Assembly: GCA_965248355.1 (NCBI GenBank)
Contig: OZ252098.1
Coordinates: forward strand, 4,352,001-4,416,000
Source of the DNA: Candidatus Latescibacterota bacterium
Lineage (GTDB): Bacteria; Latescibacterota; UBA2968; UBA8231
Length of the DNA stretch: 64,000 nucleotides
Direction of reading: 5' to 3'
How positions within the stretch are numbered: the stretch's first letter is position 1; every line of letters begins with the position of its first letter. The notes beneath the pieces were generated by a model. That model did not search any database. It saw only the letters and a program-made list of their open reading frames with translations, and was not told the origin of the DNA. Shown one piece after another: positions 18,159 to 27,056 of the stretch. A program made the position numbers and the translations under genes.

Positions 18159-21100
18159 TCACCCGAAGGAATGGGCGGCCATGCGGCCGTCGTCGAGCAC
18201 GCAGACCAGGTGCCGGCCGGCGGCCGCCAGCCGCCGGACTTCTCCGCCCGTCCACGACTCGCCCACCACCTCGCCGGCCGCGGTTACCCTCAGCAGGCGG
18301 CCTCCCTCGGCGGCGAGCACGAGGTCGTCCTCCAGGCGGGTCGACGCGCGGACCCACTCGCACGGATGCCAGTGGCGGCGCAGGGTCCCGTCCCGGTCCA
18401 GGCAGTAGAGATCGCCGAAGCCGTTGGCCGCCACCACGCCGCCCGGCAGGACTTCCAGGGCCGCCACCTCTCCGACGACGTTCAACTGCCACAGCTCCTC
18501 TCCGGCCCGCGGCTCGACGGCGAAGAGCCAGCCGTCCTCGGTGCCGTACACGATCTCGCGGACCCCGTCGCCGTTCAGGTCCGAGAGTCGCATCCGCGTC
18601 AGGTGGATCCCCCGACGGGGCGTGGTGGCGTTGCCCTCGGAACCGACTTGCTCGAGGGTGGACCAGCGGAAGGCGCCGTCGAAGTCGTGCACGGTCAGCG
18701 GCGTCGAGTAGGTGGTGCCCACGATCACCTCGGCGCGGCCGTCGCCGTCGGCATCGGCGGCCTCGAGGGCGGTGATGACGTGATAGCGCATCCAGCGGGC
18801 CCATTTGGGCGCGCCGTCGGGAGTGAAGACGTTGACGAACCAGCCCGCCGTGCCCCCGAGGAGGCTCACCTCGCCCCTGCCTTCCAGATCCGCAACGGCC
18901 AGGGCCGTCACCGGCGACACGGCGCCGTAGAGGTTCTTCATCGGCCGCCGCCAGCGCTCGCGGCCACTGCCGCCGTCGAGGACGATCAGCTCCGACGCGG
19001 CCGAGCCGACCAGAGCCTCCGGGACCCCGTCGTCGTCGATGTCCGCCCACAGCAGGGCCGAGGCCAGGGAATCCAGCTGCACGCGCCAAACCTCGGCGCC
19101 GCTTCCGGCATCCAGCTTCACCACGTCGCCGCTCTCCCCGCCGGCGAGCAGGTGGACGCTGTCACCCGTCCCGGCAGCGGCCACGGGACCGGCGGGGCCG
19201 ACCTCGAAGCGGCGCTCCCACAGCGGCGGATAGGTGGCGAACCGCCGGGCGGAAGCCGGCGCCGCGGGGGGAGAGGACGGAGTCAGGCCGGCCGGCCCCC
19301 GGGTCGAAGGTGCGGGGCCGGCGATCCTCCTCGTCTCCACCTCTGGCCGGCCGTCCTCGAAAGCCACCGTGGCCTGCTCGGCGCCGTCGCGGACGCGCAG
19401 CCCTCCGGCGTCCAGAGGCTCCACCTCGACCGGCCCGCAAGGCGTGAACACGTGGGCGAAGAGGATCGATTCCCCGGCCCCGAGCCGGCGGGCGATCTTC
19501 CGGTGCACCACGTGGAGAGGCCCGCGGTGATGGGCATAGCCACCCCAGGGGCCGCCGGGGTCCTCCACGATCTCCGCGGCGGAGTCGTCGGCGCAGAGGA
19601 GGAACAGCTCCGCGTCCCCCTGGCGAAGGCGCAGGCGGTCCTGGCCGCCGGACACGTCGCCAACCACGCGCCAGAGGCAGCGGCAGCGGTAGTCTCCCGG
19701 CTCCCGGCAGATCAGCTCGTCCACCACGGCGAGGTAGCGCCCCTTGCGCCAGACCAGGTTGCGCCGCCAGTCGAGGCCGTTGTACCCGGCCGCCTCGCTC
19801 TGCACGATCCCCCAGTCCTGCTCGTCGCGCTCCACGGTGAGGCGCGCCAGGGGCGGGATGACGACGCCGTCGCCGGGCGGATCCAGGACGCCGGCGCCGT
19901 CCCGCAACACGGTGACGCTGTTGTGGAACCGCGGCGCCGCCCGGATGTAGTCGCCGTCGGCGAGCCAGGCCCGGTTCCGCCAGGTCAGGCGCAGGATGGC
20001 GTTCGTGTCCTCGTGGCCGTGGCAGAAGGTGCCCACGCCTTCCAGCAGCACGTACTCGTCGTCGGGAGCGAAGCCCGGGCGGAGGCAGAGCTTGTCGAAC
20101 CAGCGTCCGCCGGGTGCCGGACCGTATCCATCGGGCACAGCGGCCTCCACCCAGCGCCGGGCGGCCTCGGGCAGGTCCAGCGCCGTGACGCCCAGCAGCT
20201 CCTCCGGCAGCTCGGGCTCGACCCCTTCGAGGGTGAAACCATCCTCGGCGGGCTCGACGCCGGCGTGCCAGCTCTCCAGCCCATGGTTCAGTCCGGGGCG
20301 TTTGCCCTCCCCGAGCCAGTTGAGCAGCCACAGATGGCGGGGATCCCGGGTGCGCCAGAGGGAGGCCAGCAGCGGCCACAGATGCTCGCGCCAGCCGCCG
20401 CTCTCGAAGGCGGAGAAACCGCTGCTGTCGCCGTACCCGACCTCGCTGCGCAGGTTGTCGGTGGTGACCGCCGCGAGCCGGCAGAGATCGTCCACGGGAC
20501 CCCCGTCCACGAATCGGTAGTCGCCGCGGGCCAGCAGATAGTCGTTGGTGTGGCGCGGCGTCAGCCAGACGTAGCCGACGCCGGCGTCGTCGTTGGGCTT
20601 GTACCCGGAGGCCTGGCCCTCGAAGATGCGCTCCACCCGCCGGGCCGCGGCGGCGAACTCGGTGATGCCGTACCGGCGGGAGAGGTAGTCGTGTCCGGCC
20701 GCCAGGTTGAGGCCGATGAAGGTCACGTGGTTCTGCCGCGGCAGGCCGTCCGGATTGACATCCTCCCTCAGGTAGAACAGGCCGGCCAGGTGCCGCAGCA
20801 ACTCGACGAGCATCTCCACCACCGCCTGCCGCTGGGCCGGCCCGTAGACCGGGTCGTCCTCCACCAACTCCCACAAGTGGATGAACTGGTCGAGGTGGAA
20901 GAAGTCGTGATACTCCTCGGGATGACGGAGGCGCTGCTCGCGCCAGGGCTGCAGGGAACCGGCGAAGATGGCCGCTACCAGTTGGCCCCAGGCCTCGTGG
21001 CCGCCCAGGTAGAGATTCCACAGGTAGGCTTTCAGCCGACCGCCACGGAAGGGGGAGGCCACCCAACCGCCCTGCCACAGGCTCAGATCGCGGCGTATCA

Positions 21101-21584: not shown

Positions 21585-21705
21585 GAGCGATTCCGTCAAC
21601 TCAGCGAGGCGGAACGACTTGGCGCCGCGCTCCGTGAGGCGGGTGGGGCGGCAGTCTACGGTGCGGGTCGCTCACTGGCAACCAAGCCTGACGCGGCAGA
21701 AAGCC

Positions 21706-21735
21706 TTGACTGTCGCGACCAGTCTACCCTATCAT
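21706..21735 (+). promoter_or_regulatory. Putative sigma70 promoter for the island operon
   Basis: TTGACT-N18-TATCAT, about 85 nt upstream of ATG 21821. Confidence 0.5.
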
Positions 21736-21820
21736 GCGCACCTCTCGCACGTCGCTGCGGCGAATCCGGTCTGCAGCCCCATGGGGAGGCGTCACTTCAA
21801 TCCCCGACGGAGATCGAGAC

Positions 21821-22474
21821 ATGGCAGGAAGACAGTGTTTCATCTCGCTGCTTTGGATCCTGTGGTTGACGGTGCCCTCGAGAGCAGAGGACGAGCCCAC
21901 AGTCACGGTAGTGCCGGGGCACAACCTCGTTCCGGTCATTGCGACCGACCTGCGATTCCACAGAGACTCCCTGTCGGTGTCGATCGACGATGCCTTCCAG
22001 CCTGTTGGCGCCGTGTCAGTCGAGATCGTTCGCCTTCGAGGACCGGGGGCTTCCGTAGAGACCAAGCTCGTCGTCGACATTCCGAGTGACCCCTTCATCA
22101 CTTCCTTCGAGCTACCCTTGAGAGTCGTCAGTAGCCGCGGAAGCAGCTGGCCGGTCACCTTGCACGTAGAGATCGTGGACGGCGCGCCCAGATCGAGCGA
22201 ATTGCTCGGCGTCTATCCCAATCCCTTCAATCCGGAGACCGAGATCCGGTATTTCATCGGCGGGCAGGACCCAATTGAGGCCAGGCTGTCCATCTACAAC
22301 ATGGTCGGGCAGAGAGTGCGGACCCTGTTGGAGCAGAGCGGCACACCGGGGGTGCACTCCGTCGTCTGGGACGGGACGGACGACCACGGCGGGCGCCTGG
22401 GCGCAGGTGTCTATGAGTGCCAATTGGTGGCTGGGCCGCATGTGACCACGCGCCCGATGTTGCTGCTGAAGTAG
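21821..22474 (+). CDS. Small secreted protein with C-terminal FlgD-Ig/T9SS-like domain
   Basis: Signal peptide MAGRQCFISLLWILWLTVPSRA; VYPNPFNPET...IYNMVGQRVRTL...WDGTDDHG...GVY...RPMLLLK. Confidence 0.8.
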   Translation: MAGRQCFISLLWILWLTVPSRAEDEPTVTVVPGHNLVPVIATDLRFHRDSLSVSIDDAFQPVGAVSVEIVRLRGPGASVETKLVVDIPSDPFITSFELPLRVVSSRGSSWPVTLHVEIVDGAPRSSELLGVYPNPFNPETEIRYFIGGQDPIEARLSIYNMVGQRVRTLLEQSGTPGVHSVVWDGTDDHGGRLGAGVYECQLVAGPHVTTRPMLLLK

Positions 22475-22484
22475 AGATGCCAAG

Positions 22485-23111
22485 ATGGGTGGAGCCCTGC
22501 ACAGACTTGCTGGATGCAGCGTACCCTCGATTCTGCTGACGGTCAGCGTTGTCTGTGGACAAGACGTGACCGTGCAGACGTCAAGCGACGGCGTGGTGCT
22601 CATCGAGATACGTGACCCGGAGCCGTTGTCGGACGAGGACCGGCTTGCCCTTGTGGACGAGCTGTGGGATCAAGGGGAAGCAGAGCGGGCAAGGGGCCTG
22701 CTGTCTGAGCTTCGCGCAGAGGAGGGCGCCCAGATCAGGGGGCAGGTCCTGTACAGGACCGGGCTCTTCGAGCTACAGGCAGGGCGGCCGCATGGCGCCG
22801 AGAGCGCATGGCGAGAGGGTGCCGCCGCCGAGCAAGACGCGGAGGGGGCTGGCTGGTCAGCCTACGGCCTGGCCTGGTTTGAGGCGGGCCGGGGAAAGGC
22901 CCGGGAGGCCTTGGAGCTGTTGGACAGGATTGTGACGAGCGGTGTCAGCGATGTCGAGCTGTTGGCTTGGTCCTATTTTCAACTCGGCCGTGTGCATGAG
23001 CAGATGTTGCGAGATCCGACGAGTGCACAAGTCTACTTCGACAAGGTCATGCAGCTGTATCCGGAGTCGGTTCCCGGTCAGCGCGGCTGCTGGCAGAGAG
23101 TCGCCCCTTGA
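22485..23111 (+). CDS. TPR-like repeat protein, probably exported
   Basis: Helical repeats (VLYRTG, SAYGLA, SYFQLG...YFDKVMQLYPES) and a hydrophobic N-terminus. Confidence 0.7.
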   Translation: MGGALHRLAGCSVPSILLTVSVVCGQDVTVQTSSDGVVLIEIRDPEPLSDEDRLALVDELWDQGEAERARGLLSELRAEEGAQIRGQVLYRTGLFELQAGRPHGAESAWREGAAAEQDAEGAGWSAYGLAWFEAGRGKAREALELLDRIVTSGVSDVELLAWSYFQLGRVHEQMLRDPTSAQVYFDKVMQLYPESVPGQRGCWQRVAP

Positions 23112-24223
23112 CTGTTCTCTGCAGTACACTTGGGAGGCCGTCGATCAATCGTAGAGCAGTCCTGCTACTGGGTGTTGTCGCAACCGTGCTCTCCTGGCAG
23201 GCCGCCGTTGCCAATCCGCCCTACACGGTGTCAGTGGTGGAGATCAAGTTCAACCACAACACGGGCAGTGAGACGGCGGACGGCGTGACGATCAAGACGA
23301 GCGGGGGCAGCACGATCACCTCGCCGGAGTGGACATCCGGTGGCTCCAACAAGCCGGTGGTGTATACGAAGGGCAGTAGCAAGACGATCAAGGTCAAGTT
23401 CAGTTGTACCGAAGATGACGCGCAGGACGTGGCGATCTGGGCAACGAAGACGGGCGGTGACCGTCTTGGCAGTCTCGCAGAGCAGTCGGTTGACTTCACG
23501 GATGGTTACTCTGGACCCGTATCGTATACGATACCGTCGAGCAGCGTGCCCACGGCGGTGAAGAAGAAGGGCACGGTGGAGTGGACGTGGAAGTTCCGGT
23601 ATCCGATCAACCTGACGGCAGAGATCGGCACCACCGGTCCGCATACGATCTACACGACATACGGCGCACCGGTGTCTCCTGAACCGGATCCCCGAGTAAA
23701 CATCGTAGAGTATGCCACTGATTGGGCGGACGGGAAGAGCACGACAAGTACGATTGCGGTAGCGATGATCCAGGGTGTATCGCAGAACTACAAGTACGAC
23801 GGTATCAACTGCATGAGATTGGCTAGTGACTATGTGCGCCTAGTTGGGAGTACGGGAGTCAACAACTGGCTACATTGCTGGGCAGGTATTCCTGACTTGG
23901 ACAGGGAGGTCGGGGATATGTTCTGGCAGGAGACGAGAGTGGTAGATCCAATCGGGCCGGGGAGTGCCAAGAAGTTTGATTTCAGGTACCATGTCTGGGC
24001 CGAGGCCGGCAACAAACAGCGTGATCCGAGTTTCGGGCTATCTCGTGTCGGTTCATGGGGGGGGCACGAGGACTGGCTATTCACGCGGTACCAAAGGTGG
24101 GATGACTTGACATGGCTCGACAATCAGTCTGGACAGAGTTCGGGAGTGGAGGACTACCAGGCTGAGAAGTGCATATACAAGATGATCGCTAACCCCGCAG
24201 TCTGGTTCGGTCCAAATCTTTGA
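23108..24223 (+). CDS. Secreted protein with beta-rich N-terminus and transglutaminase/papain-like Cys-His-Asp domain
   Basis: Signal peptide (RRAVLLLGVVATVLSWQAAVA); NCMRLASDY ... FRYHVWAE ... RDPS triad pattern; TTGA overlap with the upstream gene. Confidence 0.6.
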   Translation: MTVLCSTLGRPSINRRAVLLLGVVATVLSWQAAVANPPYTVSVVEIKFNHNTGSETADGVTIKTSGGSTITSPEWTSGGSNKPVVYTKGSSKTIKVKFSCTEDDAQDVAIWATKTGGDRLGSLAEQSVDFTDGYSGPVSYTIPSSSVPTAVKKKGTVEWTWKFRYPINLTAEIGTTGPHTIYTTYGAPVSPEPDPRVNIVEYATDWADGKSTTSTIAVAMIQGVSQNYKYDGINCMRLASDYVRLVGSTGVNNWLHCWAGIPDLDREVGDMFWQETRVVDPIGPGSAKKFDFRYHVWAEAGNKQRDPSFGLSRVGSWGGHEDWLFTRYQRWDDLTWLDNQSGQSSGVEDYQAEKCIYKMIANPAVWFGPNL

Positions 24224-24242
24224 GAACTGAGGAGATGAGTTA

Positions 24243-25355
24243 TTGACAGATCTTGGTGTTAGATCGATCTTGCTGTTTGTTCCGTCCGTGTTGCTAGCTG
24301 ATGGTGCTGGCACAAGGTGGGACGTGGCCATGATCGAGCAGGCCGACACCTGGGGGCAACTAATACGGAACTATGGTAGTCGGACGCATCCGGATTACTG
24401 GCAAGAGCAGAGACCGATTCTGGAGCAGCTCGCAATGGAACCAGGATCCGAGTGGGCGGATGAGGCAATGATCTGCCTAGCATGCGGACTGGCAGACTTT
24501 GAAGGGGATCTGGATAGCGGCATTGAACTGCTGCGCAGCGGCATAGAGCGCTTCAACAACGAACAGACGGTGATAGAGTCCTGGAATTTCGGGAGGGGAT
24601 GTGAGTTCGATTATGTGTGGATGCTGCACGCAAGCCTGTTGGTTGCCTTTGATGGCGCGAAAATCGACACAAGCAAACCGCTGGACTGGAACGGCTTGGA
24701 GGATCAAGACCGTGAGATCCTGGCCTACCACGAGCATCTCGGGGCGTTTCCAATACTCGCGAGATTGAAGGCGCGACGGATCCTGGCACAGATGTATGCC
24801 CGAGCCGGTCAGACGGATGCGGCTGTTGCCGAGCTGGAGTCCATGATCGCGGAGAACGGACCAGCCGACATAGCCGCACTGGTGGCGAAAGACAAGGAAG
24901 CGGCTGCTGGGCCTCATGGCTACCTCATAAGGCACCTGCCAATCTTCGAATACTCGCCAATCTGGCGCGCCGAGTATGATCCTTACCTCGAACTGGCAAG
25001 GATGCACCAGAAGGCGGGGAGTACAGCGGCAGCGGCCGATGTGTTCAGCAGGCTGGTCTCCGCTATCAGTCCCGACGGTTGGTATTGGCATCAAAACAGG
25101 CGACTCGGAGATATGTACGCCGAATTGGAGAGGTGGCCACAGGCGTTGGCGCAGTACGAGATCGCTGTTGATGGGATTCTCTGGTCCATCCGGGACTGGT
25201 CGAGTCGACGCGAGGAGCTGGCTGTCCTGGGGGAAGTGTCACTGCCCGACGGGGCGGAGTCCTGGGAAGAGGTGGCGAGAGGGTCAGATGTCTATGGCAT
25301 AAGTCTCGAGAGGATGCAAGCCAGAGCCGCGGAGGCGCGATCCAAGGGCCCTTAG
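24243..25355 (+). CDS. TPR-like protein with hydrophobic N-terminus
   Basis: GAGGAG RBS 8 nt before TTG; TPR-like segments LAQMYARAGQTDAAVAELE, LARMHQKAG, LGDMYAELERWPQALAQYE. Confidence 0.7.
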   Translation: MTDLGVRSILLFVPSVLLADGAGTRWDVAMIEQADTWGQLIRNYGSRTHPDYWQEQRPILEQLAMEPGSEWADEAMICLACGLADFEGDLDSGIELLRSGIERFNNEQTVIESWNFGRGCEFDYVWMLHASLLVAFDGAKIDTSKPLDWNGLEDQDREILAYHEHLGAFPILARLKARRILAQMYARAGQTDAAVAELESMIAENGPADIAALVAKDKEAAAGPHGYLIRHLPIFEYSPIWRAEYDPYLELARMHQKAGSTAAAADVFSRLVSAISPDGWYWHQNRRLGDMYAELERWPQALAQYEIAVDGILWSIRDWSSRREELAVLGEVSLPDGAESWEEVARGSDVYGISLERMQARAAEARSKGP

Positions 25356-25394
25356 CTACCTCCGTAGCCTTCGTGGAGGGGAAGGCTACGGAGG
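25331..25394 (+). promoter_or_regulatory. Candidate -1 programmed ribosomal frameshift signal
   Basis: GGAGG (25331-35), 10 nt, G-GGC-CCT (25346-52) immediately before TAG, 6 nt, then a perfect 14-bp stem CCTCCGTAGCCTTC/GAAGGCTACGGAGG (25359-94). Confidence 0.4.
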
Positions 25395-25681
25395 CGGCAC
25401 CGCTGACCTTCCAGTTGAAGCAGAACCAACCCAATCCCTTCAACGGCACGACTTGGATCGACTACTACGTCCCTGCCGGGGGTGCGGTGCAGGTGGAGGT
25501 CTTCAACACGTTGGGCCAGCTGCAGGCACGGCTGGTGAATCAGCACCGCCAGGCGGGGTGGCACAGCGTCGCGTGGGCGGGGGAGAGCCATGGTGGACAC
25601 CCACTCGCCTCGGGCACCTATGTCTACGTCCTGACGGCTCCCGGTGTGCGCCTGGCCCGGCCGATGACGCTGGTGAAGTAG
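25352..25681 (+). CDS. Orphan FlgD-Ig/T9SS-like C-terminal domain in the -1 frame of the upstream TPR gene
   Basis: LATSVAFVEGKATEAAPLTFQLKQNQPNPFNGTT...VFNTLGQ...WAG...ASGTY...RPMTLVK; no signal peptide. The ORF-track GTG (25373) sits in the hairpin loop. Confidence 0.65.
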   Translation, partial: LATSVAFVEGKATEAAPLTFQLKQNQPNPFNGTTWIDYYVPAGGAVQVEVFNTLGQLQARLVNQHRQAGWHSVAWAGESHGGHPLASGTYVYVLTAPGVRLARPMTLVK

Positions 25682-25694
25682 CCCGAAGGAGTGC

Positions 25695-27056
25695 TCAGCA
25701 GCTCCCGGGGCGGTTCGGGCTCGACGCCGGCGAGCACGAAGCCGTCCTCCGTGGTCTCGACGCTGGCGTGCCAGCTCTCCTGACCCTGGTCGAGGGAGGG
25801 GCGCTTGCCCTCGGCGAGCCAGTTGAGCAGCCACAGGTGGCCGGGGGGTCGCGGCTGCGCCAGACCGAGGCCAGCAGCGGCCACAGGTGCTCGCGCCAGC
25901 CGCCGGACTCGAAGGCGGCAAAGCCGCTGCTGTCGCCGTACCCGACCTCGCTGCGCAGGTTGTCGGTGGTGATCGCCGCGAGCCGGCAGAGATCGGCCAC
26001 GGGACCTCCGTCCAGGAATCGGTAGTCGCCGCGGGCCAGCAGGTAGTCGTTGGTGTGGCGCGGCGTGAGCCAGACGTAGCCGACGCCGGCGTCATCGTTG
26101 GGCTTGTACCCGGAGGCCTGGCCTTCGAAGATGCGCTCCACGCGCCGGGCCGCGGCCTCGAACTCGGTGATGCCGTGGCGGCGGGAGAGGTAGTCGTGCC
26201 CCGCCGCCAGGTTGAGGCCGACGAAGGTCACGTGGTTCTGGCGCGGCAGGCCGTCGGGATTGACCTCTTCCCTCAGGTAGAACAAGCCGGCCAGCTGCCG
26301 CAGCAGCTCGACGAGCATCTCCACCACCGCCTCCCGGTGGGCGGGCTCGTAGACCGGGTCGTCCTCGACCAGCTCCCACAGGTGGATGAACTGGTCGAGG
26401 TGGAAGAAGTCGTGATACTCCTCGGGATCACGGAGGCGCTGCTCGCGCCAGGGCTGGATGGAGCCGGCGAAGATGGCCGCCACCAGCCGGCCCCAGGACT
26501 CGTGGCCGCTCAGGTAGTGATTCCAGAGATAGGACTTCAGCCGGCCGCCCCGGAAGGGGGAGGCCACCCAGCCGCCGTCCCAGAGGGCCAGGTCGCGGCG
26601 CACGAGCTCGTCGAGCTCGGAGTCGGCCGGCGGCTCGGGAAGGCCCGGCAGGCGGCGGGCGGAGACGCGGCGAGGAAGGCCGCCGGCGGCCTCGACGATG
26701 CGGATCAGCTCCGCCACCGCGGCGTCCAGTCCGGCCTCGCTGCTGGCCCCGGCCACGACGGCGCCGGGACCGTGTCCGAGAGGATCGCGGATCGAGGTCA
26801 GGAGATAGTGGTCGCCGCCCGGAAACAGGGTGTCGACGAAACAGCGCCGGGCGTTGTAGAGCCAGGCCACGGCGGCGTTGTTCGCCATGTTGCCGCAGGC
26901 GATGACGCGGTGGCCGCGGAAGAGGGCCTGGTCGAAGGCGTTGTGCGGAAGGAGCGGAGCGCCGCAGGCGTCGGCCAGCCGGCGCGCCAGCGGTGCCTCC
27001 TCCCAGCCGTCCGGCACGACGACGACGGTGGGGTCCGATGGAGCGGTGACGTTCAT
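25695..27056 (-). pseudogene. Truncated, frameshifted paralog of the 5' ~40% of the 18159-21584 gene
   Basis: Long near-identical peptide blocks (e.g. EEYHDFFHLDQFIHLWELVEDDPVY, GQASGYKPNDDAGVGYVWLTPRHTNDYLLARGDYRF). Frameshift at the G6 run 25843-25848. Homology ends at ...PPRELL near 25695. Confidence 0.85.

Follow-up and report, generated by a model that had tools for sequence, protein, structure and literature searches.

A candidate programmed −1 frameshift that would attach a type IX secretion sorting domain to a TPR protein in a Latescibacterota bacterium

Introduction

Can a single bacterial gene supply both a periplasmic protein and a version of the same protein tagged for secretion, by letting some ribosomes change frame at its last codon? 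The question is raised by a locus in a 64,000-nt stretch of DNA (hereafter the window; bases 4352001-4416000 of contig OZ252098.1) from the genome of a Candidatus Latescibacterota bacterium (GCA_965248355.1), a single 5.5 Mb contig that is 95.7% complete with 4.2% contamination. At this locus, the open reading frame (ORF) of a 370-aa tetratricopeptide repeat (TPR) protein ends at a UAG codon, and the −1 frame continues into a C-terminal domain (CTD) that matches the sorting domain of the type IX secretion system (T9SS). An earlier note on this DNA proposed that recoding could yield a short periplasmic form and a CTD-tagged exported form. The analysis presented here supports that proposal, as no indel was found at the junction, the hairpin that follows it is unique in the genome, and a second, distantly related locus is split at the same codon with the same signals. 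The probable explanation is thus that ribosomes are programmed to shift by −1 at the last sense codon, a conserved feature that would yield a periplasmic form of 370 aa and a CTD-tagged form of 479 aa. The slippage itself, its efficiency, the ribosomal site at which it would occur and the locations of the two products are all deduced from sequence.

A sorting domain in the −1 frame

The TPR ORF encodes a protein that matches TPR_14 in Pfam (35.8 bits) and has a signal-peptide-like N-terminus, MTDLGVRSILLFVPSVLLADG..., as judged by eye and by alignment with homologs. Its last codons are AAG (25344-46), GGC, CCT and TAG (25353-55), so that the end of the gene and the G_GGC_CCT heptamer described in the earlier note are confirmed. 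The coordinates of this and the other elements of the junction are collected in Table 1. Around the junction, the window reads ...AAEARSKGP* in the 0 frame, followed in the −1 frame by LATSVAFVEGKATEAAPLTF..PNPFN (longer stretch: LATSVAFVEGKATEAAPLTFQLKQNQPNPFN).

Translation of the −1 frame starts GPLATSVAFVEGKATEAAPLTFQLKQNQPNPFN... and runs to a stop at 25679-81. The product scores above the cut-offs of both Pfam FlgD_ig (29.2 bits; cut-off 27) and the NCBIfam model of the T9SS type A sorting domain, TIGR04183 (27.8 bits; cut-off 23), bearing out the claim that this frame leads without a stop into a complete FlgD-Ig CTD. It also contains the PNPFN motif and the linker pattern common to the other CTD loci of the genome. 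The predicted trans-frame protein would comprise 370 + 109 = 479 aa, with GPLATSVAFVEGK as its junction peptide.

The CTD also proved to lack a start and a signal peptide of its own, as had been noted. Before 25346, the −1 frame runs through 58 codons without a stop, none of which is ATG, GTG or TTG, and the earliest start codon in this frame is a GTG at 25373, within the loop region of the hairpin. Separate translation of the CTD was therefore rejected. The codon-position GC of the extension is 0.67/0.49/0.83, and over about 25320-25355 the frame that shows the third-position GC (GC3) signal changes from that of the TPR part to that of the CTD. A C-terminal CTD on a cargo with a signal peptide, the arrangement suggested here, would hold only if the frameshift occurs.

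The assembly across the junction

A split gene may also arise on paper, when the consensus has lost a C or G and the true gene is an in-frame fusion. The break does lie within a GGGCCC run, and a single 5.5 Mb contig with the completeness and contamination given above suggests a metagenome-derived assembly. Nevertheless, independently built Logan contigs from four runs (5060, 5060, 5060 and 4950 nt; word depths 8.9-27.7) show 0 differences and 0 gaps relative to the window over 24300-25953 (to 25843 in run X4), with no extra C or G at the junction. These four runs come from one sample, probably the source sample, and test the assembly and not the biology. Across the genome, 79 of the 84 CTD loci (tblastn, E<=1e-3) have at least 100 open codons upstream in frame, which indicates that the assembly is not riddled with indels. 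The same stop is also found in a locus from a different project (L009, described below) and in the corresponding protein of an ENA assembly, P0086. A sequencing or assembly error is accordingly very improbable.

Further downstream, over 25943-26300, all four runs hold a second contig of comparable depth with 22 differences in 358 nt, and this is why the run contigs end at 25953. The second contig represents either the upstream paralog (about 93% identical; see below) or a co-existing strain.

The hairpin downstream of the putative slip site

The spacings described for the signals around the slip site are exact: a Shine-Dalgarno (SD)-like GGAGG precedes the heptamer by 10 nt, and a perfect 14-bp stem begins 6 nt after it. 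Folding of the 45-nt hairpin gave −29.4 kcal/mol (z −6.3), and 0 of 200 shuffled sequences were equally stable. The z-score of a 121-nt fold is only −1.1, and the stability signal resides in the hairpin itself. Perfect stems of at least 14 bp with loops of 3-10 nt amount to 50 entries in the 5.5 Mb genome, nested duplicates included, so that a perfect stem 6 nt past a given site is an event of about 1e-5 to 1e-4.

The hairpin is also an outlier among synonymous alternatives. When synonymous codons were shuffled with the peptide kept and the gene's own codon usage retained, 3 of 2000 sequences matched the native energy, compared with 553/2000 and 78/2000 for the linkers of two other CTD genes of this genome, which are in frame and encode similar peptides. 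No other linker among the 78 CTD loci scored (of 84) forms as stable a 45-nt structure as that of the TPR gene (−34.1; second −31.6, median −19.9), and its GC content is the lowest of the 15 most stable loci listed.

Other roles for the hairpin were considered. The earlier note had named a genome-wide repetitive extragenic palindromic (REP)-type repeat as a finding that would speak against recoding, and this is excluded by the single occurrence of the hairpin sequence in the 5.5 Mb genome. An intrinsic terminator was rejected because no U tract follows the stem. T-rich runs do follow several of the perfect hairpins listed genome-wide, two of them just downstream of CTD loci. The idea that a template-switch insertion of 14 nt brought about the frame change was also rejected, since deleting either arm leaves 0-frame TAGs at 25353 and 25365.

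A second locus split at the same codon

L009 is a 1602-nt metagenome contig that encodes the TPR protein P0006, which is about 35% identical to the TPR part of the window's protein. In a codon alignment, the two genes share 34% of amino acids, 45% of nucleotides and 32% of third positions. The L009 ORF ends GAG GAG GCA GAA TCG AGA CGC CCT TAG (...EEAESRRP, then UAG), and P0086 is an identical 370-aa protein with the same stop. The −1 frame of L009 reads ACG CCC TTA GAG ACC TCC GTG GCC ..., translated as PLETSVAQAEGEATRGSQAF..PNPFN, and reaches the contig end with an FlgD_ig match of 34.3 bits (cut-off 27).

The signals around the junction recur as well. The two loci have in common a slip-site sequence, GCCCTTAG, and a 22-nt core, GCCCTTAGnnACCTCCGTnGCC. 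In L009 the gap between GGAGG (1271-75) and CCT (1290-92) is 14 nt, as in the window, and a hairpin stands at the same position (−27.1 kcal/mol, z −5.3), its native energy being matched by 1 of 2000 synonymous shuffles. The two hairpins have 11 homologous base pairs. Ten of these do not differ between the loci, and the other is compensatory, A-U in the window but G-C in L009, with its two bases at the third positions of Val and Ala codons. The slippery heptamer of the earlier note fared less well: G_GGC_CCU is present in the window, but the corresponding position in L009 reads A_CGC_CCU. The conserved putative slip motif is therefore the tetramer C_CCU next to UAG, and not the heptamer.

Codon choice at the junction is also unusual. 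The Leu of the −1 frame is spelled UUA in both loci, and it is because of this spelling that the 0-frame UAG exists. Elsewhere, UUA accounts for 0 of 114 Leu codons in the coding segments of the low-GC island that contains the gene and for 1 of 46 in L009. The three most nucleotide-conserved of the 449 12-codon windows compared between the two loci lie on the junction (0.72), in a tie with the WADDA..CLACG motif.

Searches for further loci of this kind returned few relatives. With six query sequences, a scan of metagenome contigs gave 143 pattern matches with one relative (L009), a scan of genome contigs gave 80 matches with no relative, and a scan of viral contigs gave 50 matches with no relative. 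The DNA pattern of the cassette had no match in genome contigs, and its sole match in viral contigs, L017, was dismissed as chance: it lies on a phage contig whose real gene runs on the opposite strand, and no TPR or CTD is present. Among 168 genomes of the phylum, the 15-base core was found in the source genome (G000) only, and a reversed-pattern control gave two matches. A search with the L009 protein returned three proteins and no closer relatives. Between the genes upstream of the two loci, synteny is indicated weakly by a 15-residue match (WxDNQS motif, E 0.005).

The protein family and its in-frame fusions

An exhaustive HMMER search recovered 84 proteins at E<=1e-3, namely 83 homologs and the window's own protein, the best homolog being 39% identical. 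Most homologs are about 350-385 aa long, carry a signal peptide and end near the end of the window's ORF. By contrast, a word-index protein search with the TPR ORF found no match besides the protein itself, and 40 relatives gave only weak TPR matches (E 0.001-0.007). Seven of the 168 phylum genomes matched, including the source genome, and the rest of these matches were partial or distant. One genome of the same family holds an 89-aa open fragment (L011, G166:C70, 1504-1752, minus strand) that resembles family residues 40-123 (E 5e-10 to P0006) and is probably what is left of a gene of this family.

Among the 40 homologs scanned with Pfam, three have an FlgD_ig domain in frame at the C-terminus: P0013 (MFC1526666.1; 464 aa), P0015 (484 aa) and P0022 (508 aa). 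These fusions show that the predicted trans-frame protein is a natural architecture in part of the TPR family. The in-frame junction of P0013 reads ...QEAEANRP-LETSVAQVDGEATRGPQAF..PNPFN (longer stretch: LETSVAQVDGEATRGPQAFTLEPNWPNPFN), and its RP|LETSVA aligns exactly with the predicted shift site, between Pro and Leu. The earlier note had suggested looking among homologs for either a conserved split or a fusion, and both were found: the split frame recurs with its signals in L009, but P0013, P0015 and P0022 are in-frame fusions.

This junction also bears on the idea that insertion of a low-GC island placed a foreign TPR gene by chance beside a resident CTD remnant. The island (about 21700-25680) does end close to the junction, and the GC3 of the CTD (0.83) is higher than that of the TPR part (0.66). 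Against such a juxtaposition, the same linker and CTD are joined to the TPR family at the same residue in L009 and P0013, and even the closest paralogs of the CTD in this genome share only 42-45% identity with it. Chance juxtaposition is thus hardly credible.

A recent deletion as the alternative

In-frame fusions with the same junction open a further explanation. In both lineages, recently and independently, such a fusion may have been severed from its CTD by a real deletion of 1 nt within the short G/C run (GGGCCC in the window, GCCC in L009), so that only the 370-aa protein is made and the CTD is an undecayed remnant. Several observations favour this account, and some of them weigh against a programmed frameshift as well. 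A CTD is absent from most of the family, whose proteins end close to this point, and P0033 and P0087 have ...AP* as their last residues at the aligned position. The family can thus do without the CTD, and a protein truncated by a frameshift would look normal and be viable. Short C runs are prone to indels, CTD-only ORFs are common in metagenomes, and real frameshift decay occurs in this very genome, where the CTD locus at position 4227799 is split across frames.

Other points that count against programmed frameshifting concern the signals themselves. The linker peptide of the in-frame P0013 is nearly identical to that of L009, and if the same hairpin is present in the P0013 DNA, then it is not specific to frameshifting. 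The GGAGG sits in Glu-Ala codons that are conserved across the family, which largely explains the SD-like motif. Codon identity at conserved residues is 7/13 in the cassette, not clearly above the 53/143 found in the rest of the gene. As the heptamer is not conserved, only a single-tRNA slip would be available, and C_CCU ranks low among the tetramers compared in E. coli. In that comparison, G_GGC_CCA is moreover among the three worst heptamers (PMC4066793). Finally, the window and L009 are the only two split loci compared as DNA, both (2/2) split at the same codon.

The deletion account nonetheless requires two independent recent events in the same nucleotide run of genes that are 35% identical, both caught before decay, and both CTDs still score above the Pfam cut-off. 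It also leaves unexplained the rare UUA shared at the junction, the compensatory pair, and hairpins that are outliers among synonymous shuffles in both loci while the in-frame CTD linkers are not. For these reasons, we regard deletion as unlikely and prefer the programmed frameshift.

A possible mechanism

If the frameshift takes place, most ribosomes would end at the UAG and release the 370-aa form, which has a Sec signal and, like most family members, presumably resides in the periplasm. At the mRNA entrance, the 14-bp hairpin would detain a fraction of the ribosomes. The GGAGG located 14 nt before CCU perhaps assists by pairing with the 16S tail, which ends ...CACCUCCUUUCU in this genome and carries a canonical anti-SD. 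When CCU occupies the A site, about 11-12 nt would separate the first P-site base from the base of the stem, the distance at which the ribosome must begin unwinding. The tRNA-Pro would then slip from CCU to CCC, its GGG anticodon swapping a G:U wobble for a G:C pair, either during translocation or during a P-site wait opposite the slowly read UAG. After the slip, UUA would be read as Leu and the 109 codons of linker and T9SS type A / FlgD-Ig CTD would be translated.

Genes for tRNA-Pro(GGG), (CGG) and (UGG) and for tRNA-Leu(UAA) are present in the genome. The machinery that could receive the longer product is also encoded. SprA (TIGR04189) exceeds its cut-off with a summed score of 605.8 bits in an open frame of 2067 aa, and a PorV-like protein reaches 157.8 bits (E 6.6e-46), below the cut-off of 250 bits. 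The 479-aa form could therefore be passed to the T9SS for export or surface attachment.

The expected efficiency is low. In a survey of E. coli tetramers, shifting follows the order A_AAG >> U_UUC > U_UUU > C_CCU = C_CCC > A_AAA, and these six best tetramers, C_CCU among them, gave 0.26-5.6% with a strong pseudoknot (PMC4066793). With such values, low efficiency is the default expectation for the TPR gene.

A pseudoknot may also play a part in the window and in L009. The hairpin loop of the window is complementary, by eye, to a short downstream segment (Table 1), and in L009 the loop GAAGGC (1316-21) is likewise complementary by eye to GCCUUC (1343-48). That the stimulator could be an H-type pseudoknot in both loci is speculative. 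Transcriptional slippage was rejected as an alternative route to the longer product, as the runs are only 3-4 nt long.

Features of the locus and its annotation

Table 1. Elements of the TPR gene and its 3' junction, in window coordinates.
Feature	Position	Strand	Remarks
Ribosome-binding site GAGGAG of the TPR gene	24230..24235	+	7 nt 5' of TTG 24243; read from sequence
0-frame ORF, 370-aa TPR protein	24243..25355	+	TTG start; ends ...ARSKGP, then UAG
Internal SD-like GGAGG	25331..25335	+	10 nt before the heptamer, 14 nt before CCU
Heptamer G_GGC_CCU	25346..25352	+	Conserved core is the tetramer C_CCU, 25349-25352
0-frame UAG	25353..25355	+	Abuts the putative slip codon 3'; overlaps the −1-frame Leu codon UUA (25352-54)
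−1-frame extension, linker and T9SS type A / FlgD-Ig CTD	25349..25681	+	After Pro370, 109 codons (25352-25678); stop 25679-81
Candidate stimulatory hairpin	25359..25394	+	14 perfect bp (25359-25372/25381-25394), 8-nt loop; in −1-frame codons for TSVAFVEGKATE
Possible pseudoknot partner CCUUCC	25407..25412	+	Complementary to the loop GGAGGG (25375-80), by eye

The public annotation of the TPR gene, P0002 (341 aa), begins at Met30, downstream of an RWD motif conserved in the family. Starting at TTG 24243 adds a signal-peptide-like segment together with RWD, and homologs carry RWD right behind their signal peptides. The public start is therefore probably too short. The CTD is presently annotated as a separate 102-aa protein, P0090. 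As a consequence for annotation, the two parts of the proposed product are called apart, one of them with too short a start.

Genomic setting

The TPR gene is the last of four genes on the same strand in a low-GC island of about 4 kb (21700-25680; 52-64% GC, compared with 70-77% in the flanks), preceded by genes for a 246-aa CTD protein, a 208-aa TPR protein and a 371-aa protein. The island is flanked by paralogous minus-strand genes, whose 3' parts (20190-20638 and 25693-26143) form a direct repeat, 5.5 kb apart, with 80-93% identity. The near absence of the TPR family from the 168 phylum genomes suggests horizontal acquisition, and the island may have come from a donor of about 60% GC. The GC content of L009 is 61%.

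The gene immediately upstream (23108-24223) encodes the 371-aa protein, which has a signal peptide and no Pfam or NCBIfam match. Its matches in a protein atlas are 'hypothetical' clusters (0.94-0.95), with Transglut_core (0.80) as a weak lead, and Cys..His..Asp-like motifs were seen by eye.

Several other CTD loci of the genome also have interrupted frames. At about 4226900-4228000, the PNPFN part, the rest of the CTD and a beta-propeller-like part lie in three frames, and this locus, near 4227799, looks like a decaying pseudogene. At about 3075388-3076500 (minus strand), a 48-codon in-frame upstream ORF seemingly continues a signal-peptide ORF of another frame. At about 2504776-2505900 (minus strand), the upstream ORF has 83 codons, and a single in-frame stop lies inside an otherwise continuous TPR-like protein.

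CTDs encoded on their own are frequent beyond this genome. A search of short proteins with the CTD profile gave 126 matches, which are generic CTDs (best non-self identity 43-45%), none of them tied to the TPR family. Many CTD-only ORFs of 80-130 aa occur in metagenomes (P0091-P0209), some on long contigs (e.g. 12-658 kb), and a few are annotated as complete. A CTD with no cargo would be of no use by itself, and some of these ORFs may extend upstream genes out of frame.

Comparison with known systems

Programmed frameshifts in bacterial chromosomes, outside mobile elements and phages, are few and include dnaX, prfB, copA and cdd. The layout of the TPR gene resembles that of dnaX, in which an SD-like element lies about 10 nt upstream and a hairpin about 6 nt downstream, and two products come from a chromosomal gene. 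However, dnaX slips two tRNAs on A_AAA_AAG, whereas the TPR gene would slip a single tRNA-Pro on C_CCU with an abutting 0-frame stop. The shifted product of dnaX is the shorter one, while that of the TPR gene would be the longer, as in phage capsid and tail extensions, and the two genes have no sequence or protein homology. In Bacillus subtilis, cdd reportedly undergoes a chromosomal −1 frameshift by a single-codon slip on CGA_AAG near the gene end, with an upstream SD-like stimulator. The slip codon differs from that of the TPR gene, and cdd is not known to have a downstream hairpin or a function for its extension.

In outcome, the proposed event is closer to phage systems such as T3 gene 10, Lactobacillus phage A2 and the Listeria phages A118, A500 and PSA, in which a frameshift near the ORF end adds an Ig-like fold to a fraction of the molecules. 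Some phage sites also place a Pro codon beside a stop (CCC_UGA), although the shift there is +1 and that of the TPR gene would be −1 at C_CCU_UAG. Unlike these cases, the TPR gene is cellular, with no phage genes seen beside it, and the appended domain is a secretion-sorting signal (TIGR04183) and not a virion decoration. Among phage relatives, in-frame and out-of-frame versions coexist (PMC5009743).

A functional likeness is found in eukaryotes. In fungi and animals, stop-codon readthrough is reported to add a peroxisomal targeting signal (PMC4207609). In both systems, recoding at the end of an ORF unmasks (or, for the TPR gene, would unmask) a C-terminal targeting signal, giving two locations per gene. 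The eukaryotic mechanism is in-frame and exposes a tripeptide, whereas the TPR gene would use a frameshift to add a folded domain. Ordinary T9SS type A cargo, in turn, has its CTD in frame in the other cases checked, with the exception of the decayed locus (4227799).

Implications

In a literature search on frameshifting and type IX secretion, which also brought up an unrelated preprint on nematode killing, no case of a frameshift that attaches a T9SS sorting domain was found. A broader proposal is that frameshifting acts as a dosing valve for secretion, setting the ratio of periplasmic protein to protein that is exported or surface-anchored by the T9SS, and that it is perhaps a recurrent way to attach such domains. 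It would be recurrent if some of the CTD-only ORFs from metagenomes of T9SS-bearing phyla are hidden −1 or +1 extensions of the cargo genes before them. On present evidence, this proposal is distinctly doubtful. If the programmed frameshift in the TPR gene is real, it would provide a bacterial counterpart of eukaryotic readthrough-dependent targeting, in which one gene serves two locations in a fixed ratio. It would also add a compact and testable cassette, about 65 nt long, which comes from a high-GC lineage not yet in culture and whose slip motif, C_CCU_UAG, is unlike the classic heptamers.

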